Notes: a model not told the origin generated them from the sequence alone. A DNA stretch of 64,000 nt from Dehalococcoidia bacterium (GCA_034421435.1 DAOUKJ010000040.1:21373-85372); one strand, 5' to 3'. Counted from the stretch's first letter, positions 33,391 through 58,707 are shown. Numbers and translations: made by a program.

Positions 33391-35568
<2,178 letters not shown>

Positions 35569-35572
<4 letters not shown>

Positions 35573-38002: not shown

Positions 38003-38055
38003 GATGCTAACAATATGTGCCGAGTATTGATGCTTCAGAAAGGTGCGGTCCAGCC

Positions 38056-38684: not shown

Positions 38685-38704
38685 GCTCTCGGAACAAACT
38701 GCTT

Positions 38705-41700: not shown

Positions 41701-42028
41701 GGGATGCAAGCTGTACGCCACGGAGGGCACGGCGGGCTTGGTGCAGGGCCTGGGCCTGCCGGTGACGATGATTACGAAGAAGCTGAGCGAAGGCCACCCC
41801 AACGTGATGGACATCATGATGGACGGCACGGTGCAGGCGGTGGTGAACACCGTGACGGGCGAGCGCGCCAACCTGCAGGACGGCTTCGAGATACGCAGGG
41901 CGGCGGTGGAGCGCCGGATCCCGTGCTTCACGTCGCTGGACACGGCGCGTGCGGCGGTCGAGAGTCTGCTGCACGGCGCGGCGGGCTACAGCATCCGCCG
42001 CCGCGACGAGTATTTGGAGGAGGGGTAG
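38705..42028 (+). CDS. carB: Carbamoyl-phosphate synthase large subunit
   Basis: The ATG at 38705 gives [33 protein letters not shown]. It has two ATP-grasp halves and an MGS-like C-terminus. The track start at 38681 overlaps vapC and is less likely. Confidence 0.97.
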
Positions 42029-42049
42029 GGGGCGCGCGTCCACCTTCCG

Positions 42050-42133
42050 GCCCGCTCACGCCCTACGGCAAGCTCTGGGTGAGCGGGCTAGATTTACACC
42101 GCTCATGGTGAGCCTGTCGAACCATATGAGCGG
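42050..42133. repeat. Pair of REP-like hairpins downstream of carB
   Basis: Hairpin 1 is GCCCGCTCAC (42050-42059) / GTGAGCGGGC (42079-42088). Hairpin 2 is CCGCTCAT (42099-42106) / ATGAGCGG (42126-42133). Their loops and arms share sequence with 2429-2455 and 45786-45818. Confidence 0.65.
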
Positions 42134-42184
42134 AAATGGCGGCTTGCGGTGGCTTGACGCCTGGCGATGGTGTAAACTCCACCC

Positions 42185-45100
42185 ATGCCTAGCTATCCTC
42201 ACATAGAGCAGTATCGCGCCCAGCTTCAACGATTGATTGAGTTGGGCGGATCAGACAACGAGTCAAGCATTCGCCGCGCCTTCGCCAACTGCCTTGACGC
42301 CTACTGCCGCGACCACAGGGAGAAACTTGCGCTGGTGGACGAGCTTGGCGCAGCCCTGGGGAACCGGCCGGACGGCACTGTCAAGGACACCCTGCGCATG
42401 AACCGCGGCTACTGGGAGGCCAAGGACACCCACGACGACCTGGACACCGAGATTCAGCGCAAATTCAATCGCGGCTACCCGCGGGACAACATCATCTTTG
42501 AGGACTCCCAGACCGCTGTCCTGATCCAGAACAGGGAAGAGGCAATGCGGGTCGACATGACCCGCCCCGATGAGTTGCACAGGCTCATCCGTGCCTTCCT
42601 GGACTATGAGCTGCCGGAGATAGAGGAGTTCCGGCAGGCGCAGCAGCAGTTCAAGGCTGATCTGCCAACCGTCATCGCCAATCTGCGGGAGGCTGTCGAG
42701 GCGGCCGAGGCCGGCAACCCTGAGTACCAAGAGGCCGCTGGCGCCTTCCTGGAGCTTTGCAGACAGAGCATTGGGCCCAACCTGACCGCCGCCGACGTCC
42801 GCGAGATGCTGCTCCAGCACATCCTCACTCAGGACATCTTCCTGCGGGTGTTCGGTGAGGCCCAGTTCCATCGTGAGAACAACATCGCCCGCCAACTGTC
42901 GGAACTGGAGGCAACCTTCTTCACCCGCGATGTGCGCCGAGAGGAGATCGAGCGGTTGCGCGCCTACTACGGCGCTATTGGACGCGCCGCCGACGAGATA
43001 GCCGACCATGCCGAGAAGCAGCAGTTCCTCAAGGCCATCTACGAGGACTTCTACAAGGCTTATAACCCCGCCGCCGCCGACCGCCTGGGTGTGGTATACA
43101 CGCCCAACGAGATAGTGGACTTCATCATCCGCGGAGCGGACCACCTGCTTCAGAAGCACTTCGGTCGTAGTCTCGGAGACCGGAACGTCCAGATTCTGGA
43201 TCCTGCCACGGGCACGGGCACCTTTGTTACCAACCTCATCGGCTACCTGGCCGACAGCGGAGAGCCGGACGCCCTGGAACGCCTAGAGCACAAGTATCTG
43301 CACGAGATACACGCCAATGAGGTTGCCATACTGCCGTACTACATCGCGAACCTGAACATAGAGTACACCTACAGGGAGAAGACGGGGCGTTACCGAGAGT
43401 TCCCCAACCTGGTATTCGTGGATACGCTGGATAACATGGACTGGCAGGGGGTGACTGGTAGCGCTGTGGAGCGGCAGGGTTCATTCAACCTCGGTGGCCT
43501 TTCCACGGAGAACTGGATGCGGGTGCAGCTGCAAAACGAAAAGCCAATTAGCGTGATCATAGGCAACCCGCCCTACAACGCCAACCAGCAGAACGAGAAT
43601 GAGAACAACAAGAATCGCGAGTACCCGGAGATAGACCGGCGAATCAGCGACACCTACGTTGCATCCAGCGGGGCGCAGAAGACTAAGCAGTACGATATGT
43701 ACAAAAGGTTCATACGCTGGGCCTCCGACCGGCTGGCAGACGACGGAATCATCGCGTTCATCACAAACCGCGCCTACTTGGAAGCCCGTCAAGATGACGG
43801 CTTTCGACGGGTCGCGGCGGAGGAGTTTACTGACATATACCTCTTGGATTTAGGATCTGACGTGCGCCGAAACCCCAAAATCTCCGGCACCACACACAAC
43901 GTCTTCGGAATTCAGACCGGCGTGGCCATAGGTTTCTTTGTGCGGGAAAAGTCCAAGCTGGGTGAGTGCTCAATTCACTACGCGAGCCGTGAAGACGCCG
44001 AGCCTGCAAAGGACAAGCTGGCCTATCTGCGCGGGGCCGCACTGGGTGAGCTTGCCTTTGAGGAGATCACGCCCGACAAGGGAGGGAACTGGCTCAACCA
44101 GTCCAATAGTGACTTCGACAAGTTGCTGCCTCTAGCCAACAGAGGAACCAAATTTGCCAAGTTGGTCAGTGATGAGAGAGCAATCTTCAAGCGATATTCA
44201 ATGGGCGTTGTGACAAACCGTGACGACTGGACCTATGACTTTGACGCAGAACAGCTGGGCACGAAAGTGCGCGCAATAGTTGAGGCTTATGAGAAAAGCC
44301 GCTCAAAGTTTGGGGGTAAGAAATTCGACTCCGCCGATCTAGGTACTGAAATCAAGTGGACGCGTGATCTGAAGAATCAACTTCGTTTAGACAAACCTAA
44401 TGCCTTCAAGAGTACAAATATTCGGTCAACGCACTTTCGGCCGTTTGTCAGCAAGGAATTGTATTTCGACCAGAGCCTAAACGAAATGCAATATCAGCTT
44501 CCTGAGATTTTTCCGACGGGCCGCATCGGTGAGAACAAGGCAATCTGCTTCTGCGTGAACGGCAGATTCTTCTATGTGTTGGCGACTGATAGGGTTATCG
44601 ACCTGCACTTCACGGGAGATACCCAATGCCTGCCTCTGTACCGATACAGCTCGAACGGCGGGCGCTCTAGGAATATAACCACTTGGGGCATCAATCGCGT
44701 CAACGACCACTACAAGAAGGAGTGGGGCGAGCACTTCGATAAGGTGTACCCCAAGGGCATCACCGCGGAGCACATCTTCGCCTACACCTATGCCGTGCTC
44801 CACGATCCGGTCTACCGCTACGACTACGCCATAGACCTGACGCGTGAGTTCCCACGCCTGCCCCTCTACCACGACTTCGATACATGGGCGCGCATGGGGC
44901 AGCAGCTTCTCGACCTGCACATAGGCTTCGAGTCCGCTGAGCCGTTCCCGCTGGAGCGGATTGACATGCCTGGAATCGCAAAGCGCGTCATTCTGAGGCC
45001 GGACAAGGAGCGCGGCAGAATCGTGCTGGACGACAAGACCACGCTGACAGGCGTGCCCGCGGACGCCTGGGGCTACCGGCTGGGCAGCCGCTCGGCACTG

Positions 45101-45394
45101 GAGTGGGTGCTGGACCAGTACAAGGAGCGGAAGCCTCGCGACCCCACCATTGCGGAGAAATTCAACACATACCGCTTCGCCGACTACAAGGAGCGGGTGA
45201 TAGATCTGCTGAGGCGCGTGTGCACGGTCAGCGTCAAGACTATGGAGATCGTGGACGGCATGGCGTACTGGGACGACGGCTACCTTGTGGTGTACGGAGA
45301 CCGCGACAAGCACGAGTGGTCGATGATGGGGATGTCTCAATGGGTCAAGGATGCTGAGGATCCGGAGTGGGAGGCGGCGTGGTTGGAGACGTAG
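42185..45394 (+). CDS. Single-chain N6-adenine DNA methyltransferase / putative restriction-modification enzyme (type IIG or type ISP-like, lacking a helicase module)
   Basis: 1069 aa. The N-terminus has RPDGTVKDTLRMNRGYWEAKD (PD...EAK, PD-(D/E)XK-like). MTase motif I is ILDPATGTGTF and motif IV is VIIGNPPYN. The long C-terminal region (…FAYTYAVLHDPVYRYDYAIDLTREFPRLP…WGYRLGSRSALEWVLDQY…) resembles, from memory, the target-recognition region of LlaGI-type ISP enzymes. Confidence 0.7.
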   Translation: MPSYPHIEQYRAQLQRLIELGGSDNESSIRRAFANCLDAYCRDHREKLALVDELGAALGNRPDGTVKDTLRMNRGYWEAKDTHDDLDTEIQRKFNRGYPRDNIIFEDSQTAVLIQNREEAMRVDMTRPDELHRLIRAFLDYELPEIEEFRQAQQQFKADLPTVIANLREAVEAAEAGNPEYQEAAGAFLELCRQSIGPNLTAADVREMLLQHILTQDIFLRVFGEAQFHRENNIARQLSELEATFFTRDVRREEIERLRAYYGAIGRAADEIADHAEKQQFLKAIYEDFYKAYNPAAADRLGVVYTPNEIVDFIIRGADHLLQKHFGRSLGDRNVQILDPATGTGTFVTNLIGYLADSGEPDALERLEHKYLHEIHANEVAILPYYIANLNIEYTYREKTGRYREFPNLVFVDTLDNMDWQGVTGSAVERQGSFNLGGLSTENWMRVQLQNEKPISVIIGNPPYNANQQNENENNKNREYPEIDRRISDTYVASSGAQKTKQYDMYKRFIRWASDRLADDGIIAFITNRAYLEARQDDGFRRVAAEEFTDIYLLDLGSDVRRNPKISGTTHNVFGIQTGVAIGFFVREKSKLGECSIHYASREDAEPAKDKLAYLRGAALGELAFEEITPDKGGNWLNQSNSDFDKLLPLANRGTKFAKLVSDERAIFKRYSMGVVTNRDDWTYDFDAEQLGTKVRAIVEAYEKSRSKFGGKKFDSADLGTEIKWTRDLKNQLRLDKPNAFKSTNIRSTHFRPFVSKELYFDQSLNEMQYQLPEIFPTGRIGENKAICFCVNGRFFYVLATDRVIDLHFTGDTQCLPLYRYSSNGGRSRNITTWGINRVNDHYKKEWGEHFDKVYPKGITAEHIFAYTYAVLHDPVYRYDYAIDLTREFPRLPLYHDFDTWARMGQQLLDLHIGFESAEPFPLERIDMPGIAKRVILRPDKERGRIVLDDKTTLTGVPADAWGYRLGSRSALEWVLDQYKERKPRDPTIAEKFNTYRFADYKERVIDLLRRVCTVSVKTMEIVDGMAYWDDGYLVVYGDRDKHEWSMMGMSQWVKDAEDPEWEAAWLET

Positions 45395-45699
45395 TCCTGG
45401 CGCCGTTCCCGTACACAGACCTGAGCCAGGACGTTACACGGCCTGCGCTGGTTCTCGCAAGCGCGGGTATGGACGACTGGATAATCTGCCAGATAACCAG
45501 CAGCCCACTAGCGCGCACAAGGGACATTGCGATTCATCCGAGCGACATGCAGTCCGGTCGCCTCGCGCCCGGCAGCCACGTGCGGCCTGAGCGGTTGATT
45601 ACGATGAGCGAGAGCATATTCAGACGCACCGTCGGCCGCATAACGGACGCCAAGCGGGCAGAGGTGCTGGCCGCCGTGCGCGCCCTGTTCACAGACTAG
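45379..45699 (+). CDS. mazF: PemK/MazF-family type II toxin (endoribonuclease), no cognate antitoxin gene seen
   Basis: (M)VGDVVLAPFPYTDLSQDVTRPALVLASAG..WIICQITS...HVRPERLITMSESIF...GRITDAKRAEVLAAV matches the MazF/PemK pattern. The start is GTG 45379 or GTG 45367; either overlaps the 3' end of the methyltransferase gene. Confidence 0.8.
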   Translation: MVGDVVLAPFPYTDLSQDVTRPALVLASAGMDDWIICQITSSPLARTRDIAIHPSDMQSGRLAPGSHVRPERLITMSESIFRRTVGRITDAKRAEVLAAVRALFTD

Positions 45700-45703
45700 C
45701 CCA

Positions 45704-45766
45704 CATCACAGCTGCACTATGTGCACGCCCGTGGCCTTGAACGACGCGCTCACCTGCGCGCCCGCC
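45704..45766 (-). pseudogene. Displaced duplicate of the 3' end of tupC (last ~20 codons + stop)
   Basis: 63 bp match 48663-48725 with 3 mismatches. It translates on the minus strand as ...AGAQVSASFKATGVHIVQ(L)*, against tupC ...AGAQVSASFKATGVHIVQR*. Confidence 0.85.
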
Positions 45767-45790
45767 GTCAAGCCCTTCGACATGCTCATG

Positions 45791-45818
45791 GTGAGCGGGC
45801 TAAACCAGCATCGCTCAC
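45791..45818. repeat. REP-like hairpin (GTGAGCG-N14-CGCTCAC)
   Basis: GCTCATGGTGAGCGGGCTA at 45784-45802 combines the arm sequences seen at 42079-42090 and 42101-42112. Confidence 0.55.
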
Positions 45819-45854
45819 ACTGAGATTGACCGATTCTTGACTGGGTAAGTGGGG

Positions 45855-47174
45855 CTAATCGGGGTACTTGCTCCAGGTGGTCCAGCACGAATCTGTTGGG
45901 GTGTAGGCACCCGATACGGCAATCTCGGCTTTGTTATTCACTTGACGATCGCCTGCCTGTCCCCTTATCTGCTGGATGCTATCGTTATGCAGCCAGACAC
46001 GCGTGCGTCCGCTCCCTGTGTTGCCGCCGCTGGATGAGAAGGGATGGGGACCCTCAACGGTAATGTCCCCAGCCCAAAAGTCGTGCGCCTCGCCCCGCTT
46101 TACACCGTGCCACTGGAAGCCCTCCAGGTAGTACTGCGTAAAGAGCGTGAACCCGTCGTACGGATTGAACACGTCTATGTCGTTGGCAGTGATGCCGGAT
46201 CCGTCGAATACCTTGCGCGCTATGGCATCCGTGGAAGCCTCTACCTCGTCCAGTGTTTGGATATTGCTTCGCACCTTGGGGACATTCGAAGCGTGGTTGA
46301 GAATGTAGACCGGAGGCTGCTTCATGTCCTTCGCTCGATCTGCAGTGGTGAAGACATAGGCGAACGACACCTGGATGGGCATGTCGGCATCGTAGAGGTT
46401 CATGGGTTTGGCCAGCCATCTCGCAGCCAGGTAGTCCTCAACAGTGATCGCCTCGGGCCGATGCTGGTAGAAGAATCCATCCGGATTCATCAGTCCGTTC
46501 CTTCGCTGGTTCACGATGAAAGGGGCCATCCTGTCATGGCTGGAGCCGTACTTACGGCAGTACTTGTTGAGCAGGTATCCGTAAGTTGCGCCGGCGGCGC
46601 TCCAACCCCAGGGACTTGTCCACTGGGCACCGCCGGGTGCGGTATCCAATGCGTTAGCGCCCCACTGCGAGTATCGACCTGCGAGGTTATTGAGTGCCCG
46701 AACAACCAGAACGGTATTTGCTTCTCCATCACCCACTATCTGGGCGGCGACGACGATAGCTTTCGACATGCACGTCGGAGCGTGCATGGCAAAATTGACG
46801 TTGTTCAACTCAGGCATGTTCTTGACAAGCCAGTCGGCGCTCATCGAGCTGATTCCGTCGTTGGGATTATCGGTGGGGATGTACGTTCTGGCGAAATCTT
46901 CCGGAATGGGTCTCGGCGCCCAGGGCTCACCTGTGCAATGCGGAACGACAACAAGGCCGTCGATCGCGTCCGGGGATATCCCCGCATCCTCCAGGGCTTT
47001 GTTGACCGCTATCAGGGTGTTCGCGCCCACGCTGGTTTCGGGCCTTTCGTCCCAGCGCCGGGCTGTCGGAGAGCACCCCAGTCCCGCCACCGCCACCTTC
47101 CCCCTGTGCTCCCATAGTCCCAGGTTCTCTCTCTCCCTGTAAAGCGAAAGCGGAGCCAACGGAGTTGGTGCCAT
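45855..47174 (-). CDS. Thiolase-like (SCP-x / lipid-transfer type) protein
   Basis: The ATG at 47174 follows GAGAGGAG. 439 aa with VAVAGLGCSPTARRW and ALEDAGISPDAIDGLVV. It is paired with an upstream DUF35 OB-fold gene, the usual partner of this thiolase subfamily. Confidence 0.75.
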   Translation of the reverse strand: MAPTPLAPLSLYRERENLGLWEHRGKVAVAGLGCSPTARRWDERPETSVGANTLIAVNKALEDAGISPDAIDGLVVVPHCTGEPWAPRPIPEDFARTYIPTDNPNDGISSMSADWLVKNMPELNNVNFAMHAPTCMSKAIVVAAQIVGDGEANTVLVVRALNNLAGRYSQWGANALDTAPGGAQWTSPWGWSAAGATYGYLLNKYCRKYGSSHDRMAPFIVNQRRNGLMNPDGFFYQHRPEAITVEDYLAARWLAKPMNLYDADMPIQVSFAYVFTTADRAKDMKQPPVYILNHASNVPKVRSNIQTLDEVEASTDAIARKVFDGSGITANDIDVFNPYDGFTLFTQYYLEGFQWHGVKRGEAHDFWAGDITVEGPHPFSSSGGNTGSGRTRVWLHNDSIQQIRGQAGDRQVNNKAEIAVSGAYTPTDSCWTTWSKYPD

Positions 47175-47215
47175 TTGCTTACTCCTCTCTATTCGTTGGC
47201 AAGTCGCAGTGATGG

Positions 47216-47638
47216 CTAGTCTGCCTGGTGCACAACTCGCCATTCAGGAATCAGTTGACCGGGCGCCGCCCCCTCCACGAATATGACCTCCACAGAGGCT
47301 CCCACCGGGACCTCATCTACCGGCGTCCCAGGAAGGTTGGAGAAGAACTGGATGTCAGGGTCTTCTTCGATCTGAATGATGGCGACGTTGTAGGGCTGGT
47401 CTTCCACATACAATCTGAGGCGTGAGTCATGTATCACTACGTAGTCATCTATGGTGCCCCTCCCGCTGACTTCACTCCACTCCAGATTCTCGGCGGAGTC
47501 ACATTGGTAGCAGATTGATTCCGGTGGGAATTGCCATCGATCGCAAGGGGGGCATCTCTGGACTATTAGTCGCCGTTCGTTCGCAGCCTCCCAGAAGGGC
47601 TTGCTCACCTCATCGGGAATTGGTACGGGCCTTGGCAT
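47216..47638 (-). CDS. Zn-ribbon OB-fold protein (DUF35 family)
   Basis: The ATG at 47638 follows GAGGAGG and gives MPRPVPIPDEVSKPFWEAANERRLIVQRCPPCDRWQFPPESICYQCDS (rubredoxin-like CxxC...CxxC), followed by an OB-fold part. Confidence 0.8.
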   Translation of the reverse strand: MPRPVPIPDEVSKPFWEAANERRLIVQRCPPCDRWQFPPESICYQCDSAENLEWSEVSGRGTIDDYVVIHDSRLRLYVEDQPYNVAIIQIEEDPDIQFFSNLPGTPVDEVPVGASVEVIFVEGAAPGQLIPEWRVVHQAD

Positions 47639-47922
47639 GGGAACCTCCTCTTCGATCCAGAATCCCTGCAAGCTCCCTGGGGCTCCTGAGCTACAAAGAA
47701 CGTCATCATGATACCAGAGATTCCTGGATTTGCCAGCCATCTGTATGGGACCAGGGCATATTGCAAAGGACTTCCTTGCGATCTCCGGCGTTCGCCTCCC
47801 CATCGCGGCGCGACGGGCTTCAGTGTCCGCCTCCGTGAGGAGTGCCTGGGCGAGGGGTAGGGCGAGGGGGCGGCCTGCGACGGCCACTGGTAGCCCTGGA
47901 TTGACAATAACGCAGGCCTTTT

Positions 47923-48277
47923 GTCATTCTGAGGAGCGAAGCGACGAAGAATCCAAAGCCTATGCGCGACTACTACGTTTACGTCCTGACAAACGAGACC
48001 CACAGGCTGTACGTCGGTGTCACCGGTGACCTCCAGCGAAGGATGTACGAGCACAAGAACAAACTGACTCCGGGATTCACAAGCAGGTACAACCTGCGGT
48101 GGCTGGTCTACTACGAGGCCACCACTGACGTTCGGTCTGCGATAGCTCGTGAGAAAGAGATAAAGGGATGGAAGCGGTTCAAGAAGGTCGCCCTGATAGA
48201 ATCGGAGAATCCCAATTGGGTAGACCTGAGTGCTAAGTGGTCGGAGGTCTTGGATTCTTCGCTGCGCTCAGAATGAC
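47923..48277 (+). mobile_element. Inverted-repeat-flanked GIY-YIG mini-element (intact copy)
   Basis: The left arm GTCATTCTGAGGAGCGAAGCGACGAAGAATCC (47923-47954) and right arm GGATTCTTCGCTGCGCTCAGAATGAC (48252-48277) are imperfect inverted repeats. They bracket only the GIY-YIG ORF. Confidence 0.6.
47962..48276 (+). CDS. GIY-YIG nuclease family protein (UPF0213/COG2827 type)
   Basis: 104 aa reading MRDYYVYVLTNETHRLYVGVTGDLQRRMYEHKN...REKEIKGWKR. The GIY and YIG beta-strands and the conserved R, E and N positions are present. Confidence 0.85.
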   Translation: MRDYYVYVLTNETHRLYVGVTGDLQRRMYEHKNKLTPGFTSRYNLRWLVYYEATTDVRSAIAREKEIKGWKRFKKVALIESENPNWVDLSAKWSEVLDSSLRSE

Positions 48278-48293
48278 GCAGAGGCGCGCTCCT

Positions 48294-48462
48294 GTCATTC
48301 TGAGGAGCGAAGCGACGAAGAATCCAGAGCAATGGGGGGATACTCCGCTCACGTACTGACAAACTAGATTCGAGGGCAGCGCCTCTTGCGTTGACCCGGG
48401 CTCGGTGGCCCCAGTCGCTGATTGGTCGGAGGTCTTGGATTCTTCGCTGCGCTCAGAATGAC
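48294..48462 (+). mobile_element. Internally deleted (MITE-like) copy 1 of the GIY-YIG element
   Basis: It has the same left and right arms. The residual 5' coding remnant ATGGGGGGATACTCCGCTCACGTACTGACAAACTAG compares with ATGCGCGACTACTACGTTTACGTCCTGACAAACGAG in the intact gene. The 3' remnant TTGGTCGGAGGTCTTGGATTC is identical to the intact gene end. Confidence 0.65.
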
Positions 48463-48478
48463 GCAGAGGCGCGCTCCT

Positions 48479-48647
48479 GTCATTCTGAGGAGCGAAGCGA
48501 CGAAGAATCCAGAGCAATGAGGGGGTACTCCGCTCACGTACTGACAAACTAGATTCGAGGGCAGAGCCTCTTACGTTGACCCGGGCTCGGTGGACCCAGT
48601 CGCTGATTGGTCGGAGGTCTTGGATTCTTCGCTACGCTCAGAATGAC
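48479..48647 (+). mobile_element. Internally deleted (MITE-like) copy 2 of the GIY-YIG element
   Basis: Near-identical to 48294-48462, offset by exactly 185 bp. It ends 17 nt before the tupC stop codon. Confidence 0.65.
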
Positions 48648-48664
48648 GAAGAGGCGCGCGTCCA

Positions 48665-49735
48665 TCACCGCTGCACAATGTGCACGCCTGTGGCCTTGAA
48701 CGACGCGCTCACCTGCGCGCCCGCCGACAACCCCAACTCCTGCGCCGACCTCGCCGTGACCAGCGCCACCAGGGGGAAGCCGCAGTCGACAACCACGCGC
48801 ACCAGCGGCCCCATCGAAGCCGTGGCCGTGATGACGCCCGGGAAGGCGTTTCGTGCGCTCGTCGGGGCCTGCGTGAGCGCAAGCACCACCTCCTCCGGCC
48901 TCACGCACGCGATCACCGGCACGCCCGGCTCCAGCTCGGACACGCCCTCCACCAGGTGAGCGCCGACGCGGACGTTCACCATGCCCGCCTCGCCCGACTC
49001 CACGGCGCCCTCCAGCAGGTTTTCCACGCCTACGAACCGGGCCACGCTGACGCTGCTCGGCAGGTTGAATACCTCGCTGGGGTTGCCCACCTGCAGCATG
49101 GAGCCGCCGATGAGCACGCCGATGCGGTCGGCGAGGCGCTGGCCCTGCGCCATGTCATGGGTGGCCATGACTACGGTGGTCTGCAGCTCGTCGATGACGC
49201 GACCGATAAGTTCCTCGACCATCGCCGTGGAGACCGGGTCAAGATTGGCCGTCGGCTCGTCCAGCAGGAGCAGTCTTGGCTCCGTGACCATCGTGCGGGC
49301 GAGGGCCACGCGCTGAATCTCGCCGCCGGAGAGCGTCCGAGCGTTGCGGCCCTCGAATCCGGGCAGATCCACGGTCTCCAGGGCGCGCCGCACGCGCTCG
49401 CGAATCGACCTGCGGTCGTGGCCGCGCACATGCAGGCCGTATGCCACGTTGTCGAACACGCTGCCGCTGAAGGCCACGGGCTTCTGGAACACGATGCCGA
49501 TCCGCCTGCGCATCGCCAGCCGTGAGGCCTCGGTCTGCGGCGCTTCTGCGTCGTCGAACGCAATCGACCCCGCATCCGGCTGCTCAAGCAGGTCGAGCAG
49601 GCGCAGCAGGGTGGTCTTGCCGGAGCCGCTCGGCCCGATGATCGCCGTGACGCTGCCGTCTGGCACGTCCAGCTCGACGCCGCGGAGAGCGTCGTGGCCG
49701 TCGTACTGCTTGGAGAGATCGCGTATCGTAATCAT
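48665..49735 (-). CDS. tupC: Tungstate/molybdate-type ABC transporter ATP-binding protein with C-terminal TOBE domain
   Basis: 356 aa with Walker A GPSGSGKTTLL, signature LSGGEIQRVALAR and Walker B LLLLDEP, plus a TOBE-like C-terminus. It is co-oriented with tupB and tupA. Confidence 0.85.
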   Translation of the reverse strand: MITIRDLSKQYDGHDALRGVELDVPDGSVTAIIGPSGSGKTTLLRLLDLLEQPDAGSIAFDDAEAPQTEASRLAMRRRIGIVFQKPVAFSGSVFDNVAYGLHVRGHDRRSIRERVRRALETVDLPGFEGRNARTLSGGEIQRVALARTMVTEPRLLLLDEPTANLDPVSTAMVEELIGRVIDELQTTVVMATHDMAQGQRLADRIGVLIGGSMLQVGNPSEVFNLPSSVSVARFVGVENLLEGAVESGEAGMVNVRVGAHLVEGVSELEPGVPVIACVRPEEVVLALTQAPTSARNAFPGVITATASMGPLVRVVVDCGFPLVALVTARSAQELGLSAGAQVSASFKATGVHIVQR

Positions 49736-50427
49736 CGCTGCTGCCTCTGCTGAAACCGGCCTACCAGGATGTTGACGGTGAGCGCGAGTGACACCAGGAT
49801 TATGCCCAGCGCCATCGCCAGCTCGAAGTTGCCGATGGAGGTCTCCAGGGACATGGCGGTGGTGAGCGTGCGGGTGTAGCCGCGAATGTTGCCTCCCACC
49901 ATGATCGCCAGGCCGATCTCGGAGAGCGCGCGCCCGAACCCCATCAGCACCGCCGTCGTCACGCCGTACCGGGCCTCCCTGACGATGGTGACGATCGCCT
50001 GCGTCCTGCCCGCGCCCAGCGAGACTGCGGTGTCGCGTATCTCCGGCGAGACGCCGCGCAGGGCGGAGATGGTCAGCCCGGCCATGATGGGCGATATGAG
50101 CAGCACGTGCCCCACCACTATGGCCGCGGGCGAGAAGAGGATGCCCAGACCGCCGAGAGGCCCGTCGCGCGAGAAGGTGATGAACACCAGCAGCCCCACG
50201 AACACGGTCGGCATGCTGAACAGCGTCTGTATGACGTTGACCAGCATCGACTTGCCGCGGAAGCTGTGGAAGTGGATGAGGCTTCCCGCGGGTATGAAGA
50301 GCAGGGCTGCTATGACGGTGGATGTGGCAGCGATTGCCAGCGTCCTGCCGGTGATGGTGAGCACGTCCCGGTCCAGGGACACGATGAGGCTCAGGGCGGA
50401 GAGCAGGCTGTCCAGGACCAGTTCCAA
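49732..50427 (-). CDS. tupB: Tungstate ABC transporter permease
   Basis: The TTG at 50427 is about 10 nt after AGGAG. 231 aa, 5-6 TM segments, with an EAA-like loop (AVSLGAGRTQAIVTIVREA). The stop overlaps the tupC start. Confidence 0.8.
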   Translation of the reverse strand: MELVLDSLLSALSLIVSLDRDVLTITGRTLAIAATSTVIAALLFIPAGSLIHFHSFRGKSMLVNVIQTLFSMPTVFVGLLVFITFSRDGPLGGLGILFSPAAIVVGHVLLISPIMAGLTISALRGVSPEIRDTAVSLGAGRTQAIVTIVREARYGVTTAVLMGFGRALSEIGLAIMVGGNIRGYTRTLTTAMSLETSIGNFELAMALGIILVSLALTVNILVGRFQQRQQR

Positions 50428-50434
50428 GTGCGGT

Positions 50435-51451
50435 TTACTCCTGTGGGCAGTCGGCGGATTGCCGATCGGAAGAGGTGGAGACCCGGGGCGCGTTGCCTGA
50501 TGGATTCCAGTCGCGTGCCGGCACGAGCAGGGGAGCGTCGTAGTCACACACGCCAAGAGTTCCGATGATGTCTTGGACGGCGTCGGAGGACAGGAAGTCG
50601 ATGAGCTTGGCGGCCGCGTCGTGGTTGACGTCGGGATGACGTTCCGGGCTGACTGCGATGGCGGAGTAGAGGTTCAGCAGCGCATCCCCCTGCTCGACGA
50701 GGGGCACAAGCGCCGGTTTCTGCCTAGAGGCCTCGTAGGTGCTGCTGACGGCCAGCGTGTAGGCGGACTTCTCGTAAGCCATCATCAGCACAGCTCCCAT
50801 GCCTGCCCCTGCCTCAAGATACCACGGGCCGGACGACCTGACCGCCTCGTATTCCAGTCCCGCGGTGCTCCACAGCTGCATCTCCCGCGAGTGCGTGCCG
50901 GACTTGTCGCCCCGTGACACGAACTTCACGCCTTCCGGATCGGCGCGACCGCGCTCCATGATGCGCAGGAGGGCGGCCTCCGGCGCCATGCCGCGTATGC
51001 CCGCGGGGTCGCTCGCCGGGCCCACGATGATGAACCGGTTGTAGGCAATCGGGTGACGCGCGAGGCCGTGGCCATCCGAGATGAATGCGAACTCGCGAGT
51101 CTCGTCGTGCAGCGTCAGCACGTCCACGTCGCCGCGGCGACCCGCCTCGATTGCCTGGCCGGTGCCGCCAGTGAGCACAAGCAGGTCAACGCCGTGCTCC
51201 TTCTCGAACATGGGCTCCAGCACATCCCACAGGCCGATGTGGTACATGCTCGTCGTGGTTGCGAGCTTGAACCTGCCTGCGTCGACGGCGCCGGGCGCCA
51301 CGCCCGCTGGTGAGCAGGCCGCTAGCGTCGCGATTGCTAGCGCCAGGACGGCGGCGAGCCACAACGTCGTGTGACGTGCGTTCGTTGGTGCGTTGTCGAT
51401 TTCCAAGGGGTTTCCTGCTTGGGCCGGGCTTGCGGAGAGCTTGCGGGGCAT
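50435..51451 (-). CDS. tupA: Tungstate ABC transporter substrate-binding lipoprotein
   Basis: ATTTSMYHIGLWDVLEPMFEKEHGVDLLVLTGGTGQAIEAGRRGDVDVLTLHD and FIIVGPASDPAGI match the TupA signature. The lipobox is LAIATLAAC|S. The start (ATG 51451) is uncertain. Confidence 0.85.
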   Translation of the reverse strand: MPRKLSASPAQAGNPLEIDNAPTNARHTTLWLAAVLALAIATLAACSPAGVAPGAVDAGRFKLATTTSMYHIGLWDVLEPMFEKEHGVDLLVLTGGTGQAIEAGRRGDVDVLTLHDETREFAFISDGHGLARHPIAYNRFIIVGPASDPAGIRGMAPEAALLRIMERGRADPEGVKFVSRGDKSGTHSREMQLWSTAGLEYEAVRSSGPWYLEAGAGMGAVLMMAYEKSAYTLAVSSTYEASRQKPALVPLVEQGDALLNLYSAIAVSPERHPDVNHDAAAKLIDFLSSDAVQDIIGTLGVCDYDAPLLVPARDWNPSGNAPRVSTSSDRQSADCPQE

Positions 51452-51585
51452 GCTGAGCGGTCGAATTCCGTACCGGTTAGTCTCTGTGTCGGGAGTAATG
51501 GGGTTTCGAATCGCGCAGTCCATCCCGCACCGGCGATGCGCCCATGCCGCTCAAAGAGCTCGCGAGGCATGGCCGAATCGGCTCC
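51452..51585 (-). ncRNA. Structured tupA 5' leader; candidate Moco/Tuco-type riboswitch (unverified)
   Basis: About 135 nt lie between the predicted promoter and the tupA ATG. The leader contains GGAGCC near its 5' end, two long hairpins (CCATGCC...GGCATGG; GCGCA...TGCGC) and ACUCCCGAC near its 3' end. GAGCC and CUCCCG resemble conserved Moco-motif blocks as I recall them. Confidence 0.3.
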
Positions 51586-51591
51586 TGCGGT

Positions 51592-51620
51592 ATTGTAACC
51601 GACAAGCGGATTAGGCACAA
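51592..51620 (-). promoter_or_regulatory. Sigma70-like promoter candidate for tupABC (TTGTGC-17-TACAAT)
   Basis: Read on the minus strand: TTGTGC at 51620-51615 and TACAAT at 51597-51592. Confidence 0.45.
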
Positions 51621-51865
51621 CGCGAGCTATGGAGAGTATATCGCTTCCGGCCCCTCCTGACTCTGACGAATCACAGGGAGCATCGCGCGCGGCTGCTTGT
51701 GGTACAGTATACGCTGTTCAGTTCTACTAGCCGGACGGGCAGTGCAATCCGTGGACGAAGCTATGTCAATGACGCTGCGTGAAGTTGTCGAGGGCATAAA
51801 TCCGGCCGACAGTATGGTAGGCGACTTCGCTGAAACGGGCAGCGCCCGCGCGTGAGGAGACAAAT

Positions 51866-52492
51866 ATGGGAAGCTGGTACCTGGTGCGTCATGGCGAGAC
51901 TGACTGGAACCGGTCCGGTAGGATCCAGGGTCACACAGACGTGCCTCTGAACGATAACGGACGAAGGGAGATCGGGTTGCTGGCGCAGAGGCTAGCCCGT
52001 CACAGCTTTGCCGCCGTGTACTCGAGCGACCTGTCTCGCACCTCGGAGAGCGCAAGCATTATCGTAAGCGGCATTGGAGTCTCAGCAGTCGCGGACCCGG
52101 ACCTCCGCGAGTTCTCCTACGGCGAGTGGGAAGGCTTGACCACTAAAGAGATTGAAGCGCAGTTCCCCAATGCCTATGCCCAGCTCATGGGCGCGGAGAA
52201 CAGCGCGTTCGTCGCTCCCGGCGGCGAGAGCTCGGCTCAGGTGCTCGACCGGGTGCGTCGCTTCTGTGCGAGGGTAGAGGAGCGGCATACTGCGGCCGAA
52301 GACATCCTGGTCGTGGCTCACGGAGGTACGATTCGAGCTCTGGCGGCCTGCCTCCTGGATCTCCCCAACGACTCACTCTGGAAGTTCGAGGTGGGCCGCG
52401 CCAGCCTGTCGATTGTACGCAATCACACCAGAGGGCGTGTCCTGGAGCTTTGGAACGACACGAGTCACCTGGTGTCTGCGGACTGCCGGTGA
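51866..52492 (+). CDS. Histidine phosphatase family protein (PGM/CobC-like)
   Basis: MGSWYLVRHGETDWNRSGRIQGHTDVPLNDNG (RHG catalytic motif) and a later VVAHGGTIRAL. Confidence 0.88.
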   Translation: MGSWYLVRHGETDWNRSGRIQGHTDVPLNDNGRREIGLLAQRLARHSFAAVYSSDLSRTSESASIIVSGIGVSAVADPDLREFSYGEWEGLTTKEIEAQFPNAYAQLMGAENSAFVAPGGESSAQVLDRVRRFCARVEERHTAAEDILVVAHGGTIRALAACLLDLPNDSLWKFEVGRASLSIVRNHTRGRVLELWNDTSHLVSADCR

Positions 52493-52640
52493 CGCAGAAG
52501 GCGTCAAGTCACGGATAGCCCGCCGCTCAAGACTATCCGGAGCCAGCGTCTAGTTTCAGGGCGCGGCGACGCAATAGCAGCCGAAAGAGGGCAAGATGTG
52601 CTTGCCAAGGGCAGAATCAGGCTACGGGGGGCAGATGTGA

Positions 52641-52730
52641 TGGCGGAGAGGGTGGGATTCGAACCCACGAGAGGATCGCTCCCCTACGCGATTTCCAGTC
52701 GCGCCTGTTCGGCCACTCCAGCACCTCTCC
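52641..52730 (-). tRNA. tRNA-Ser (anticodon GGA)
   Basis: The reverse complement folds as a class II tRNA. The acceptor is GGAGAGG/CCTCTCC. The anticodon stem is CGCGA/TCGCG with loop CT-GGA-AA. It has a long variable arm. The T arm is GTGGG-TTCGAAT-CCCAC, and CCA is encoded. Confidence 0.92.
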
Positions 52731-52764
52731 GATCGCAGGCGCTCTATGTCGCGCGCCCAGCCAC

Positions 52765-52855
52765 TGGCGGAGAGGGTGGGATTTGAACCCACGTCCCGGT
52801 GCAACCGGGAACCGCTTTTCGAGAGCGGCGCCATAAGCCTCTCGGCCACCTCTCC
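52765..52855 (-). tRNA. tRNA-Ser (anticodon CGA)
   Basis: The reverse complement has acceptor GGAGAGG/CCTCTCC. The anticodon stem is CCGCT/AGCGG with loop CT-CGA-AA. The variable arm is CCCGG-TTGCA-CCGGG. The T arm is GTGGG-TTCAAAT-CCCAC, and CCA is encoded. Confidence 0.92.
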
Positions 52856-52911
52856 GCAAATGCATAGCATACCACATTGCGGCGGACGCCCCACACATCG
52901 CCATGCCGGAT

Positions 52912-52941
52912 TTGACAGCGCGAAACGCGCCATGCTATTAT
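52912..52941 (+). promoter_or_regulatory. Sigma70-like promoter candidate upstream of glmU (TTGACA-18-TATTAT)
   Basis: TTGACA at 52912-52917 and TATTAT at 52936-52941. Confidence 0.4.
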
Positions 52942-53027
52942 CCTGCCGGAATGAGTTCATTCTCAGATCTTGCGTAAGAGGGTGGCTTTCGCTTTGCGTA
53001 CGGCTATAGCGGGGCCGCCTTCTGCAT

Positions 53028-54401
53028 TTGGCGGCGAAAGTGGATAGCTGGAGAGCCGTCATATTGGCGGCTGGACGAGGTTCCAGGATGAGGTCCGCCG
53101 TGCCGAAGATCCTCCAACCCATCTGCGGACGCGCTATGGTCGGTCTTGTGGCTGACTCACTTCGCGGAGCAGGTCTGGACGAGGTGGTCGCTGTTGTCTC
53201 TCCGGGCGATTCGAGTGTTGGCGCGGCAATCGGCGGATGCGTTTCGCCCGTCGAGCAGGCCGAGCCGCTTGGAACCGCCCACGCGCTTTCGCAGGCCGGT
53301 GCGCTGCTGGCTGGGCACAGGGGCCACGTACTCGCCATCAACGGCGATGTTCCACTCATCACGCCCGCTACGATTTCCGCGCTGGTCGCTCGCCACGAGT
53401 CGACGGGCGCCTGCCTCACCATCCTGACCTGCGACGGTCCGCCTTCGCAGGGTATGGGACGCGTGGTCAGGGGCGGCGATGGCGCAGTCGCCGCAATCGT
53501 GGAGGAGGCAGATCTGGATGCTCAGTCCGCTTGCAGCACAGAGGCCAACGTCGGCGTCTACTGCGTCGAGTCACCTTGGGTGTGGAACGCCCTGTGCGAG
53601 CTGCCGACAGCACCGAACGGCGAAGTCTACCTCACGAGCCTGGTTGCGGAGGCCGTGCGCCAGGGGCACGCGGTTGAGTCCGTGTCCGTCGAGGACGCCT
53701 CGGAGGCGCTCGGCGTGAACGACGGCGTTCAGCTTGACCGAGCCAGGGAAGCGATGCGACGGCGCATCAACGACGGTTGGAGGCTGCGGGGCGTCAGCGT
53801 AATGGAACCGGCCTTCATCGACTTGACGGTTGAGTTGGGCGAGGACAGCGTGGTCTATCCCAATACCTTCCTGCAGGGCAGGACGACCATCGGGAAGGGA
53901 TGCGCGATTGGTCCAGGCTCCATGGTGACAGACTCCACGTTGGCGGACGGCTGCCGCGTCCTGAACTCAGTCGTTGAGGGCGCGGTGCTCGAGGAGGGCG
54001 TGGATGTCGGGCCCTTCAGCCACGTTCGCCCCGACTCCCGCGTGGAGACCGGCGTGCACGTGGGCAACTTCGCAGAGATCAAGAACAGCCGGCTTGGGCG
54101 AGGCACCAAGATGGGCCACTTCAGCTACGTCGGCGACTCGTGGGTTGGCGAGGGTGTGAATATAGGCGCAGGCGCCGTGACCTGCAACTTCGACGGCGTC
54201 GGCAAGCACCGCACCATCGTGGAGGATGGCGCATTCATAGGCAGCGACTCGATGCTGATAGCGCCGGTGAGAATAGGCGCAGGTGCAAGCACGGGAGCCG
54301 GGTCGGTGGTGACCAAGGACGTCCCACCCGGCGCACGCGTGGCCGGCGTCCCGGCCAGGGTCATCGCCGGCGGCAATCACGGCGAACGACGGGAATCATG
54401 A
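53028..54401 (+). CDS. glmU: Bifunctional UDP-N-acetylglucosamine pyrophosphorylase / glucosamine-1-phosphate N-acetyltransferase
   Basis: AVILAAGRGSRMRSAVPKILQPICGRAMV is followed by a left-handed beta-helix hexapeptide region at the C-terminus. The start is TTG 53028 or GTG 53040. Confidence 0.93.
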   Translation: MAAKVDSWRAVILAAGRGSRMRSAVPKILQPICGRAMVGLVADSLRGAGLDEVVAVVSPGDSSVGAAIGGCVSPVEQAEPLGTAHALSQAGALLAGHRGHVLAINGDVPLITPATISALVARHESTGACLTILTCDGPPSQGMGRVVRGGDGAVAAIVEEADLDAQSACSTEANVGVYCVESPWVWNALCELPTAPNGEVYLTSLVAEAVRQGHAVESVSVEDASEALGVNDGVQLDRAREAMRRRINDGWRLRGVSVMEPAFIDLTVELGEDSVVYPNTFLQGRTTIGKGCAIGPGSMVTDSTLADGCRVLNSVVEGAVLEEGVDVGPFSHVRPDSRVETGVHVGNFAEIKNSRLGRGTKMGHFSYVGDSWVGEGVNIGAGAVTCNFDGVGKHRTIVEDGAFIGSDSMLIAPVRIGAGASTGAGSVVTKDVPPGARVAGVPARVIAGGNHGERRES

Positions 54402-54446
54402 GGGCGCGCAAAGCACCGACAAGCGCCCGCAGGGAGGTGATACGCC

Positions 54447-55682: not shown

Positions 55683-55756
55683 GGGATAGAAAGTGTCCAG
55701 GGTGCTGGGGAACGGGAGCGGGGGAGTGAGATGTGGGATGACGGGCCAGCCTAAGC

Positions 55757-55817
55757 AAAGGAGCGGGGATGGGCATTGCCCATCCCAGCTATTTCTCTCT
55801 GCGAAATGGTGAGAACG
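55757..55817 (+). terminator. Hairpin terminator module, copy 1 (downstream of the CNNM gene)
   Basis: GGGATGGG-CATTG-CCCATCCC stem-loop followed by AGCTATTTCTCTCT. The whole module of about 60 bp recurs at 56077-56137. Confidence 0.5.
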
Positions 55818-56076
55818 TCCGGCGCTTGCGTGTTTGCCTCAATCCTCCGTGTCAGCTTCCAAGGCTTGTCGATCATGGTCATGGATTCTCCGCGGCGATT
55901 GCCGGTGTCTGCCGCGATCGCGATGGGGGGTGGTCGCCGGCATCACGAATGATGACATGCATGCTCCCAGGGTCCACGGGCTTGTCGTCCGGACTCCGTA
56001 CGATACGGTCGAGCCGCTAGGACTGGTGGATTGCAGGCTTGTGGCTGCTGAACGGAGGAGGTGGCTGAGAAACACA

Positions 56077-56137
56077 AGAAAGCGGGGATGGAACTTGCCC
56101 ATCCCCGCTCTTTCTCTATCCTAGATGGTGAGAACGG
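56077..56137. terminator. Hairpin terminator module, copy 2 (bidirectional; terminates the minus-strand secreted-protein gene)
   Basis: GCGGGGATGG-AACTTGC-CCATCCCCGC (10-bp stem). It is flanked by TCTTTCTCT on the plus strand and TTTCTTGTGTTTCTC on the minus strand. Confidence 0.55.
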
Positions 56138-56171
56138 TTGCCATCGGCGCGGTGGCCGACTCACCTCCGCT

Positions 56172-56726: not shown

Positions 56727-57067
56727 TGCTCGTGATTGGTTCTGCGAAACGCCTGCTTTCCCCGGCTGGAGAGGTGCGCCGTCTTCCATTCCTTGTCACA
56801 AATCCGCCTAATCATAGTCACATCGTGCTTTTGTGTCAACCCTTATAGCTGGCAATTTTCGTGTTCTTTGGTGCGGACCGGCATGTTGCTGCCTGACGTC
56901 AAGCTGCGATGCGAGGTTCAGGGGAGCCTCGAAGGCCCGCGGCCAGTCTCAAGTGGGCGAGGCGGCATGCACGCGGCCGACAGAACGCCCGGCGATTTAC
57001 TTGCAAGTGTACTCTGCTATAATTCCCGCTTGGCGCAGCGCCCATCTGCCACCGGGCCAGGGAGGGA

Positions 57068-58691: not shown

Positions 58692-58707
58692 GTTGCAGGA
58701 GCAAGGA

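Follow-up and report, generated by a model that had tools for sequence, protein, structure and literature searches.

Why is the 3' end of tupC present twice in the genome of an uncultured Dehalococcoidia bacterium, and what does the 2.9 kb between the two copies represent? The bacterium is known solely via metagenome assemblies, and we analyzed a stretch of 64,000 nucleotides containing the repeat (hereafter the window) together with related loci (designated by L numbers). The duplicated end was most likely left behind when gene cassettes were shuffled in the space between the convergent core genes carB and tupC, rather than by an integrase-driven mobile element.

Table 1. Features of the carB–tupCBA region of the window (positions counted from the first letter of the window).
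Feature	Position	Strand	Basis or remark
carB, carbamoyl-phosphate synthase large subunit, left core gene	38681–42028	+	ORF
REP-like hairpin, copy 1	42034–42112	+	just 3' of the carB stop; 66/79 to the single REP of L002
Type IIG restriction enzyme-methyltransferase (RM), 1069 aa	42185–45394	+	Type ISP-like coupler, C-terminal specificity domain
PemK/MazF-like gene (mazF)	45367–45699	+	overlaps the RM 3' end; Pfam PemK_toxin, E 2.5e-11
tupC' fragment	45704–45775	-	last 67 coding bases, stop and 2 nt of tupC; 67/72 to 48663–48734
Sole novel joint, tupC' to REP element at a microhomology patch	45760–45775		three homology limits
REP-like hairpin, copy 2, and spacer before the thiolase stop	45760–45853	+	79/92 to the carB–thiolase spacer of L002
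Thiolase-like / lipid-transfer-protein-like gene	45855–47171	-	Pfam Thiolase_C_1
DUF35/ChsH2-like partner, zinc ribbon and OB fold	47216–47638	-	Pfam zf-ChsH2, OB_ChsH2_C
carB'', decayed carB 3' end including stop	47806–47862	+	45/57 to carB 41974–42030
GIY-YIG element	47920–48659	+	gene 47962–48276; last base 5 nt short of the stop of tupC
Intact tupC, ABC ATPase with TOBE domain, 356 aa	48665–49735	-	last 70 bases in the right repeat, 48663–48734
tupB permease and tupA binding protein, right core flank	49732–51523	-	Pfam BPD_transp_1, PBP_like_2

A preliminary description of this DNA had reported a 63-bp direct repeat with three mismatches. The repeat is real and its limits are somewhat longer, with 67 identical bases over 72 nt and mismatches at 45710, 45718, 45730, 45768, and 45772. 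A 60-nt core of it, allowing up to three mismatches, was found at exactly two sites in the 64 kb and in 0 of 100 dinucleotide shuffles. The intact tupC gene has its true 3' end in the right copy, which completes it, and the left copy begins 4 nt past the stop of the MazF-like gene, in agreement with the earlier view of it as a vestigial tupC end beside mazF. The fragment bears clade-A–type bases and keeps ancestral ATA and ACG codons at which the resident tupC has ATT and ACA, and it is therefore not a fresh copy of the resident gene.

Both flanks of the locus are homologous to those of relatives. The CarB protein is 95–98% identical to that of L002–L005, and Pfam CPSase domains were found on the identical carB gene in L127. 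TupC, whose best-matching models are of the WtpC/tungstate type, is 97% identical to TupC of L002, the nearest relative, and tupB and tupA are conserved in all relatives. The G+C content was 0.48–0.63 over 42.0–48.6 kb, compared to 0.65–0.70 in carB and tupCBA. What lies downstream of tupC differs among L002–L020 and L128–L135, nearly every relative being distinct, and includes RM genes, another methyltransferase, an MFS transporter, a giant ORF, and GIY-YIG arrays. Defense-type occupants comprise the Type IIG RM gene, the MazF-like gene, and a PDC-M32A-like ORF in L011; a second methyltransferase-like ORF in L008 and L013 was judged from motifs only. Metabolic and other occupants are also present, namely thiolase/DUF35 genes, the MFS transporter, and a spondin-domain protein. 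In L014, carB is only 114 nt from tupC, and L004 and L005 share 97.2% identity on the carB side and 89.5% on the tup side. The carB/tupC spacer is thus a hotspot of variable content, in which the same core flanks enclose different genes among relatives.

All the parts previously listed between the two repeats, namely a hairpin, a thiolase-like gene, its DUF35 partner, and a GIY-YIG array, are present. The thiolase-like gene scored below the cut-offs of the NCBIfam thiolase models; its protein is 96–98% identical to those at the same position in L002–L005, and the DUF35 protein is 90–96% identical. The GIY-YIG gene is followed at 48238–48659 by 2.3 tandem copies of a 185-nt miniature unit. L002 has one copy of the element at this position and L003 has none, so that the 2.9-kb segment is a composite whose GIY-YIG part comes and goes independently. 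The segment also holds carB'', whose alignment score was reached by 0 of 500 shuffles; carB'' is common to the window and L002, and BLAST matched it to the carB ends of L004, L005, L133, and L135. Among the sizeable ORFs between carB and tupC, all of which could be assigned (Type IIG RM, MazF-like, thiolase-like, DUF35, and GIY-YIG), there was no tyrosine or serine recombinase.

The preliminary description had taken the 2.9 kb for one attL/attR-like element integrated into tupC, and had named thiolase/DUF35 genes at this position without the repeat as the finding that would speak against it. The closest relatives, L002, L003, and L005, have exactly this arrangement, with the two genes between tupC and carB and a single tupC end, and the segment is therefore not a discrete integrating element. 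The vestigial tupC end and the lack of an integrase stand, as does the earlier alternative that integration used another mechanism, while the att-like element does not.

Compared to L002, the window has an extra ~3.65 kb (42113–45759) carrying the RM gene, the MazF-like gene, and tupC'; apart from this stretch the two are colinear, and L002 has one tupC end and one REP. The RM gene, which is missing in L002, L003, and L005, matched the Pfam families ISP_coupler, N6_Mtase, Eco57I, and Type_ISP_C and, over its full length, the PADLOC model REase_MTase_IIG (E 3e-288). Its nearest homologue among 5.8 billion proteins was only 84% identical, and a metagenome scan gave no match above 69%. No antitoxin gene was recognised as accompanying the MazF-like gene. 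An RM gene adjoins tupC in L009, L011, L017, L128, L129, L131, and L132, and the RM–mazF pair is conserved in the first three of these. In L009 and L017, which are other Dehalococcoidia, mazF starts 20 nt after the intact tupC, and window positions 42156–45764 are colinear with L009 11013–14622, where RM, mazF, and the tupC end follow one another uninterrupted. Because RM–mazF adjoins an intact tupC end in L009 and L017, tupC' is best seen as a remnant of the usual neighbour of this gene pair.

At the novel joint, L009-like sequence extends to 45764 and L002-like sequence begins at 45760; resemblance to the resident tupC continues to 45775. The parental homologies thus overlap at 45760–45764, and mixed tupC/REP characters persist to 45775. 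The microhomology common to both parents is GCCCGC..CA..CCC, an imperfect patch, and the joint appears to be an illegitimate junction at short microhomology of the kind that defines homology-facilitated illegitimate recombination (HFIR). A stem-loop is predicted in the region of REP copy 2. The two REP copies, identical at 48 of 63 positions (76%), are the only two copies of the core in the 64 kb. The REP of L002 is not a clean hybrid of them, a make-up that neither supports nor excludes loss of the RM-containing block in L002.

Similar scars were found elsewhere, including mirror-image products within the same clade. L134 and L135 have the order tupC, spondin-domain gene, intact RM, carB' fragment, DUF35, thiolase, carB, the fragment measuring 308–314 nt and being 86.6% identical to their own carB over 314 nt. 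L004 and L133 show the same order with a decayed RM gene, so that a carB end of 308–323 nt is duplicated beside DUF35 in all four loci. About 35 nt of carB' persist in L003, and the spondin-domain gene has left a remnant in L005. In L011, an independent 54-nt duplication of the tupC end surrounds a 0.6-kb ORF beside mazF–RM. Relative to the tupC stop, it spans -41 to +13, compared to -70 to +2 in the window, and the cargo differs, which disfavors a fixed att core. Each L011 copy takes in the tupC/mazF spacer together with the complement of the mazF stop, and the new DNA therefore entered a junction of the mazF–tupC type.

The history that we regard as probable is that alternative cassettes recombined at the tupC/carB hotspot, one of the two joins being homologous and the other illegitimate. 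Direct observations are the structure and its joint, the occurrence of both parental arrangements among relatives, and the similar scars at other loci. The hotspot would hold two alternative cassettes between convergent carB and tupC: an R block, consisting of a Type IIG RM gene with or without the MazF-like gene and usually having the tupC 3' end as its right neighbour, and a T block, consisting of the thiolase-like and DUF35 genes. The window would then carry R and T blocks in tandem, an R-type part running from carB up to 72 nt before the tupC end and a T-type part that starts with its REP hairpin, takes in thiolase, DUF35, and the GIY-YIG element, and finishes with the intact tupC. A single illegitimate crossover at 45760–45775, in the short patch common to tupC and the REP flank, would have joined them, and the other exchange would lie somewhere within ordinary flanking homology. 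The left repeat copy would be the stub of a tupC that once abutted mazF, surviving because only products with one full-length tupC are viable. A site-specific recombinase would not be required. As to mechanism, incoming DNA may have undergone HFIR, or a recircularised fragment may have integrated by a single crossover. HFIR depends on DNA uptake and RecA.

Sliding identity to L002 revealed no abrupt change that would mark a recombination breakpoint, whether in carB, in the T block, or in tupCBA, so the homologous exchange could not be placed. The evidence leans slightly towards addition of the R block to an L002-like T-type locus. The opposite direction, which we consider rather unlikely, is that an R-type genome (carB–RM–mazF–tupC) received the T block and a replacement tupC end from an L002-like donor, either by HFIR anchored in tupCBA or by a Campbell-type single crossover via the ~72-nt tupC homology. 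The old tupC end would thereby have been displaced towards mazF, as in the geometry originally proposed, with homologous recombination in place of an integrase. Both histories use the same single joint, and structure therefore cannot separate them. In favor of an R-type recipient, the two tupC copies, at 93% identity, are a workable recombination substrate (the REP copies are only 76% identical); single crossovers of recircularised fragments have produced duplications of 109–950 bp experimentally (PMC3240628); the new DNA of L011 went into an R-type junction; and the close relative L132 (TupC 94%) has RM adjoining tupC. Identity to L002 is also slightly higher in the T block and the 3' half of tupC (0.95–0.97) than in the flanks (0.88–0.94), but the same rise was seen against L003 and L005 and looks like ordinary rate variation. 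Moreover, for a single crossover, a substrate of 72 nt at 93% identity is short, and L002 and every other sampled clade-A genome already have the T block beside carB, so that an R-only ancestor needs extra steps. A point against the cassette-recombination reading itself is that no pure R-type locus was found in any clade-A genome.

We also considered why tandem arrangements are kept. It is conceivable, albeit doubtful, that the RM–MazF block acts as an addiction module that ordinary allelic replacement cannot remove. If so, only rare RM-keeping products would survive cassette recombination at the hotspot, and stubs of tupC and carB would accumulate as footprints of failed replacements, which would explain the tandem cassettes kept in the window, L134/L135, and L011. 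The locus would then show in nature what Handa et al. reportedly described in the laboratory in 2001 as the 'resistance to replacement' of chromosomal RM genes.

That both tupC copies lie on one molecule depends on a join across a strain-variable stretch. In an independent assembly of the same sample, L127 corresponds to window 34185–46808 with 14 mismatches, all within 46554–46795, and L001 to 46500–59516 at 100% identity. The window thus agrees with L127 up to the thiolase gene and with L001 beyond it, and both scaffolds end within the thiolase gene, sharing just 54 identical bases before diverging at the 14 sites. An assembly chimera of two co-existing strains joined inside the thiolase gene, with no real bracketed 2.9-kb segment, would account for this, but we judge it very unlikely. 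L127 shows that neither assembly breaks at the tupC'/REP/thiolase joint, each having it inside one contig, so that some genome does carry tupC' next to 950 nt or more of the thiolase gene. An identical RM protein is recorded on an 88-kb contig as well, and a divergence of ~5% over 250 nt of a gene that is otherwise shared fits strain microdiversity. In addition, the strain must have tupC, a core gene, at some place, and tupC adjoins DUF35 or its spacer in all relatives.

Another explanation would have the putative GIY-YIG nuclease break DNA beside the tupC stop, with repair from a differently organised template copying cassettes and duplicating ends. In the window, L002, L013, L015, L016, L128, L129, L131, and L132, a GIY-YIG element or a ~190-nt miniature array does immediately follow tupC or sit at the 3' end of the RM gene. 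This is nonetheless a poor candidate: L002 has the element at the same site and no duplication, the novel joint is 2.1 kb from the nearest element end, and no element stands at the joint of the L011 duplication or of the carB' scars. Least credible of all, and already contradicted by relatives, is an integrative element with attL/attR at the tupC 3' end whose recombinase was lost or acted in trans: the direct repeats match a gene 3' end, the gene stays intact, and tupC-end duplications arose independently in the window and L011, but no recombinase lies between carB and tupC or was noted in the L011 insert, three relatives hold the T block here without a second tupC end, the parts of the 2.9-kb composite vary independently, repeat limits differ, and the same scar type on carB, the other flanking gene, would not be given by a tupC-specific system.

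Cassette recombination at the hotspot shares features with several known systems. RM genes are said to undergo 'insertion with long target duplication', a finding of Nobusato et al. from 2000. RM-linked rearrangements, including allelic substitution of RM genes, were surveyed by Furuta, Abe & Kobayashi 2010 (PMC2853133), where RM insertions have R and M functions, less than 20 kb, and no other mobility gene; the ~3.65-kb block with its fused Type IIG gene fits this description. As in those rearrangements, a block below 20 kb and devoid of transposase or integrase is present here and absent in a close relative, alternative occupants share one locus, and the Type IIG gene has a variable specificity region. 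REP copies 1 and 2 might correspond to the direct repeats longer than 30 bp that align to a single empty-site copy, here the L002 REP. However, the REP flanks here are 76% identical, compared to ~93% or higher in published cases; such divergence is too great for a recent target duplication and more probably means that each REP comes from a different parental haplotype. Furthermore, the tupC-end repeat brackets the neighbouring cassette and not the RM block, which bears a fragment of a foreign neighbour gene, as haplotype recombination rather than target duplication would produce.

Integrase islands at the 3' ends of tRNA or protein genes likewise have a 3'-end direct repeat and an intact gene at one border. 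Unlike them, the locus has no recombinase, the enclosed DNA is not a unit, repeat limits differ between cases, and the same scar type occurs on the opposite flanking gene, carB. There is also a resemblance to the T6SS effector–immunity loci, with C-terminal displacement and arrays of orphan modules (Kirchberger et al. 2017, PMC5361080), and to the displaced modules of rhs loci (Jackson et al. 2009, cited in PMC5361080). There, too, alternative modules arrive successively, push older ones aside, and leave 3' gene-end stubs, and HFIR is the mechanism proposed (PMC5361080). Those arrays grow one way, downstream of a toxin gene whose own 3' end varies, whereas at the present locus two unrelated housekeeping genes, tupC on one side and carB on the other, have had their ends displaced, with scars in both orientations.

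The definition of HFIR itself comes from experiments with naturally transformable bacteria (de Vries & Wackernagel 2002; Prudhomme et al. 2002; summarised in PMC3240628). The process usually deletes recipient DNA, whereas both cassettes are kept here and 72 nt are duplicated. Like HFIR, the proposed event would combine one exchange in extended homology with one join at a few bases of microhomology, adding foreign DNA beside a conserved anchor with no recombinase gene.

The window holds a tandem of two alternative cassettes, R (a Type IIG restriction-modification gene, RM, with or without a MazF-like gene) and T (a thiolase-like and DUF35 pair); its duplicated tupC end is most likely a scar left by recombination at a hotspot of variable content. 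Two 72-nt direct repeats (45704–45775 and 48663–48734) matched at 67 of 72 positions, with mismatches at 45710, 45718, 45730, 45768, and 45772; the repeat of the tupC end noted in the preliminary description (63 nt, three mismatches) was confirmed as the inner part of this pair. Its 60-nt core, with up to three mismatches allowed, occurred at two sites in the 64 kb and in 0 of 100 shuffles, and a search across the window found no tupC-end copies beyond these two. The right copy is the true end of the tupC gene for an ABC ATPase with a TOBE domain; the next two genes encode a permease and a binding protein. The left copy, a stub termed tupC', starts 4 nt after the stop of the PemK/MazF-like gene. 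G+C content was 0.48–0.63 over 42.0–48.6 kb, compared to 0.65–0.70 in carB and tupCBA. Promoter and terminator counts over 41.9–48.8 kb were at the level of shuffles, with nothing at the joint, and folding of the tupC'/REP region gave the REP stem-loop only (z of −3.1 on the plus strand and −1.5 on the minus strand). A VapB-antitoxin-like small gene was seen between carA and carB (~38056–38295, from positions 3872–4111 of L127, a locus from the same sample), with no toxin partner noted.

Features of the carB–tupC region in window coordinates, and GIY-YIG arrays in the window and in three loci from other genomes
Feature	Position	Strand or remark
carB	38681–42028	
Type IIG restriction-modification gene (RM)	42185–45394	1069 aa
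MazF-like (PemK/MazF-like) gene	45367–45699	
tupC fragment (tupC')	45704–45775	
REP-like hairpin, copy 2 (REP2)	45760–45853	
Thiolase-like gene	45855–47171	
DUF35/ChsH2-like gene	47216–47638	
GIY-YIG gene	47962–48276	
2.3 tandem 185-nt units	48238–48659	
tupC, tupB, tupA	48665–51523	
tupC (ABC ATPase)	48665–49735	minus strand; 356 aa
GIY-YIG array, window	47920–48659	
GIY-YIG array, L015	11111–12015	
GIY-YIG array, L128	9220–10330	
GIY-YIG array, L129	9220–10240	

A TupC scan using one genome per species yielded 79 loci, with tupC on the plus strand in all. The contents 3' of tupC varied in nearly every relative. In the closest relatives, L002 (TupC 97%, the nearest), L003 (92%), and L005 (90%), the T block lies between tupC and carB, and none of the three loci has RM, mazF, or a second tupC end. 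The thiolase/DUF35 pair thus occupies this site without the repeat, the very outcome that the preliminary description had set as its own refutation, and the earlier proposal that the 2.9-kb segment between the repeats is an integrating element was not upheld. Because colinearity with L002 is confined to three stretches (36000–42112, 45760–48282, and 48602–52519), the DNA extra to L002 is about 42113–45759, comprising RM, mazF, and tupC'.

More distantly related genomes have the R block immediately beside tupC. In the R-type reference L009, colinearity with window 42156–45764 opens 29 nt ahead of the RM start, takes in mazF, and closes just inside the 3' end of the L009 tupC, and the distance from tupC to the mazF start is 20 nt in both L009 and L017. 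Adjacency of tupC and RM was also found in L011, L013, L015, L128, L129, L131, and L132 (TupC 94%), several of which have GIY-YIG elements between the two genes. Since mazF and RM lie directly beside tupC in these relatives, tupC' is the stub of a tupC gene that normally abuts mazF. Loci L004 and L005 were 97.2% identical from DUF35 to past carB and only 89.5% identical over tupCBA, which makes the tupC/carB hotspot a recombination boundary as well.

The RM and PemK/MazF-like genes overlap by 28 nt (42185–45699), and the pair is kept in three other genomes (L009, L011, and L017). No antitoxin gene was recognisable for the PemK/MazF-like gene, and its protein had no match in PADLOC. Within the RM gene, G+C dips to 0.475 at 43600–44700, past the methyltransferase domain and into the C-terminal specificity domain; this part had no nucleotide homology to L011, L015, L017, L132, or L135, while both gene ends aligned, and it looks like a specificity-region exchange. 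No R-only genome of clade A, the window's own close-relative group, was found by metagenome scan and protein search. When a pure R-type locus from a close relative was sought in metagenomes with the RM protein, there was no match above 69% and no tupC/carB context. The nearest RM among 5.8 billion proteins was 84% identical; three near RM matches were tupC-adjacent in two cases and elsewhere in one, with none in clade A. Exact-protein look-ups for the thiolase and mazF proteins returned no record.

In alignment A1, the stretch from the carB stop to the thiolase stop contains a single REP-like hairpin in L002 and two in the window. REP1 (42034–42112), 3' of carB, matched the L002 REP at 66/79 positions, and REP2, ahead of the thiolase stop, matched the L002 spacer at 79/92, while REP1 and REP2 matched each other at only 48/63. 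Besides these two, no copies of the REP core were found within the window. A REP in L002 made up cleanly of REP1 on the left and REP2 on the right would have marked that locus as derived by deletion; its informative sites were interleaved, which speaks neither for nor against such a loss. In L003 (13145–13335) and L005 (13400–13590), the carB–thiolase spacer has a different insert of ~150 nt with long inverted repeats at the site of the L002 and window hairpins, possibly a further small repeat element or an RNA.

Three limits define the joint: R-type (L009) homology ends at 45764, T-type (L002) homology starts at 45760, and similarity to the resident tupC stops at 45775. In this patch tupC (GCCCGCCGACAACCCC) resembles the REP flank (GCCCGC-TCACGCCC), and the window sequence (GCCCGCCGTCAAGCCC) is a mix of tupC and REP-flank characters. 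The tupC'/REP joint is the sole junction in the region that is absent from both parental arrangements. A k-mer for a different junction, that of the tupC end with the mazF stop, is GTGCACATAGTGCAGCTGTGATGTGGGCTAGTCTGTGAAC. The stub itself has clade-A-type bases (CAGGTGAGCGCGTCGTTC, GTGCAG) and not L009-type ones, differs from the resident tupC at two synonymous sites (ATA and ACG retained, against ATT and ACA), and has its last codon changed from Arg to Leu. Given these differences, tupC' is no recent copy of the resident tupC; either its source was a related yet distinct tupC, or the stub is old.

Similar scars were found elsewhere at this hotspot. In L134 and L135 (TupC 90%), tupC is followed by a gene with a spondin domain, an intact RM, a 3' fragment of carB, DUF35, thiolase, and finally carB. 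The fragment is 308–314 nt long and 86.6% identical to the locus's own carB over 314 nt. This order mirrors that of the window and recurs in L004 and L133, where RM is decayed; L003 keeps ~35 nt of the inner end of the carB fragment upstream of DUF35, and L005 keeps a remnant of the spondin-domain gene; the T-only loci L003 and L005 look like deletion derivatives. The window and L002 both carry a decayed carB end, stop included, upstream of DUF35 (47806–47862), which matched carB 41974–42030 at 45/57 positions, a score reached by 0/500 shuffles. With this remnant, the T block of the window is bracketed by stubs of both hotspot genes, tupC on one side and carB on the other. In L011 the tupC end was duplicated independently (54 nt, 11028–11081 versus 11689–11742, 94%). 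Each repeat spans the end of tupC, the spacer, and the mazF stop (as its complement), and the pair brackets one 0.6-kb ORF (~155 aa), beside mazF-RM, which resembles the C-terminus of the PADLOC defence candidate PDC-M32A.

We propose that an R-type locus contributed the stretch that starts at carB and reaches a point 72 nt before the tupC end, and that one illegitimate, microhomology-associated crossover joined it to a T-type locus, which would have supplied everything from the REP hairpin onward to the intact tupC. A second exchange, placed within ordinary homology, would have been traceless. Products destroying tupC or carB would have been lost, so survivors would always be an intact gene plus a stub, an outcome that would mimic an att site with a replacement end. 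No sharp breakpoint of homologous exchange emerged when sliding identity was computed for carB, the T block, and tupCBA against L002, L003, and L005; a modest increase in the T block and in the 3' half of tupC was not specific to L002 but appeared against the outgroups too. This geometry could arise by either of two known processes. In homology-facilitated illegitimate recombination (HFIR), one end joins by homology and the other at 3–10 bp of microhomology (PMC3240628); alternatively, a recircularised fragment may integrate by single crossover, a route that experimentally gave 109–950-bp duplications of the homologous segment (PMC3240628). The order of cassette arrival is unreadable from the structure because the recombination product is symmetrical. 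We lean slightly towards gain of the R block by an L002-like locus, because the T block lies beside carB in every clade-A genome sampled and because L002 and the window have in common the REP, T block, carB stub, GIY-YIG element, and tupC layout.

An integrase-type island would account for a duplicated gene end, but no recombinase gene is present between carB and tupC, as already noted in the preliminary description; the enclosed DNA shows no unit behaviour, the duplications have no common core, and scars are found on carB too. The fallback offered there, integration by another mechanism, was supported. A role of the GIY-YIG element in the joint was rejected, as L002 has the element without the duplication. 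This element (47920–48659) is bounded by ~33-nt inverted repeats (TGTCATTCTGAGGAGCGAAGCGACGAAGAATCC) and has tandem 185–190-nt miniature units without most of the gene on its 3' side; such arrays, of up to ~5–6 units, recur in several genomes, in the spacer beside either the stop of tupC or the 3' end of RM. A tRNA target was dismissed, the tRNA-Ser genes being 4 kb off and at no junction. These two genes (anticodons GGA and CGA) lie side by side at 52641–52855, past tupC, in a region matched in relatives with a 29-nt core ~96–97% identical.

An independent assembly of the window's sample (SAMN17524325) gave two scaffolds, both ending inside the thiolase gene. L127 equals window 34185–46808 save 14 sites, all within 46554–46795, and carries the L002 base at 10 of them; L001 equals window 46500–59516 exactly. 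The tupC'/REP/thiolase joint is on a single contig in both assemblies, and linkage of both tupC copies on one molecule rests on a join across this strain-variable stretch. The 14 thiolase variants and the scaffold ends indicate two co-existing strains or the edge of a recombination tract.

Our analysis provides a well-resolved natural case, from metagenome assemblies of uncultured Dehalococcoidia, of cassette shuffling between convergent housekeeping genes, whose history is preserved in the nested stubs that both of these genes left behind. Even without an integrase, a short duplication of a gene end can look like an att-site signature, and annotation pipelines should not score a 3'-end duplication alone as an integrative element. 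For RM biology, the case adds a Type IIG RM-MazF pair travelling with a piece of a neighbour gene. Furuta et al. 2010 (PMC2853133) described RM-linked rearrangements, with RM blocks lacking mobility genes, long direct repeats matching a single copy at the empty site, and substitution of alleles at a single locus. The window appears to fit this class; its REP repeats are too diverged for a fresh target duplication. Its scars also resemble those of T6SS and rhs loci, where 3' ends have been displaced and modules orphaned and where HFIR has been suggested as the mechanism (PMC5361080). The window is a new example of an already known kind of scar and opens no new mechanism.
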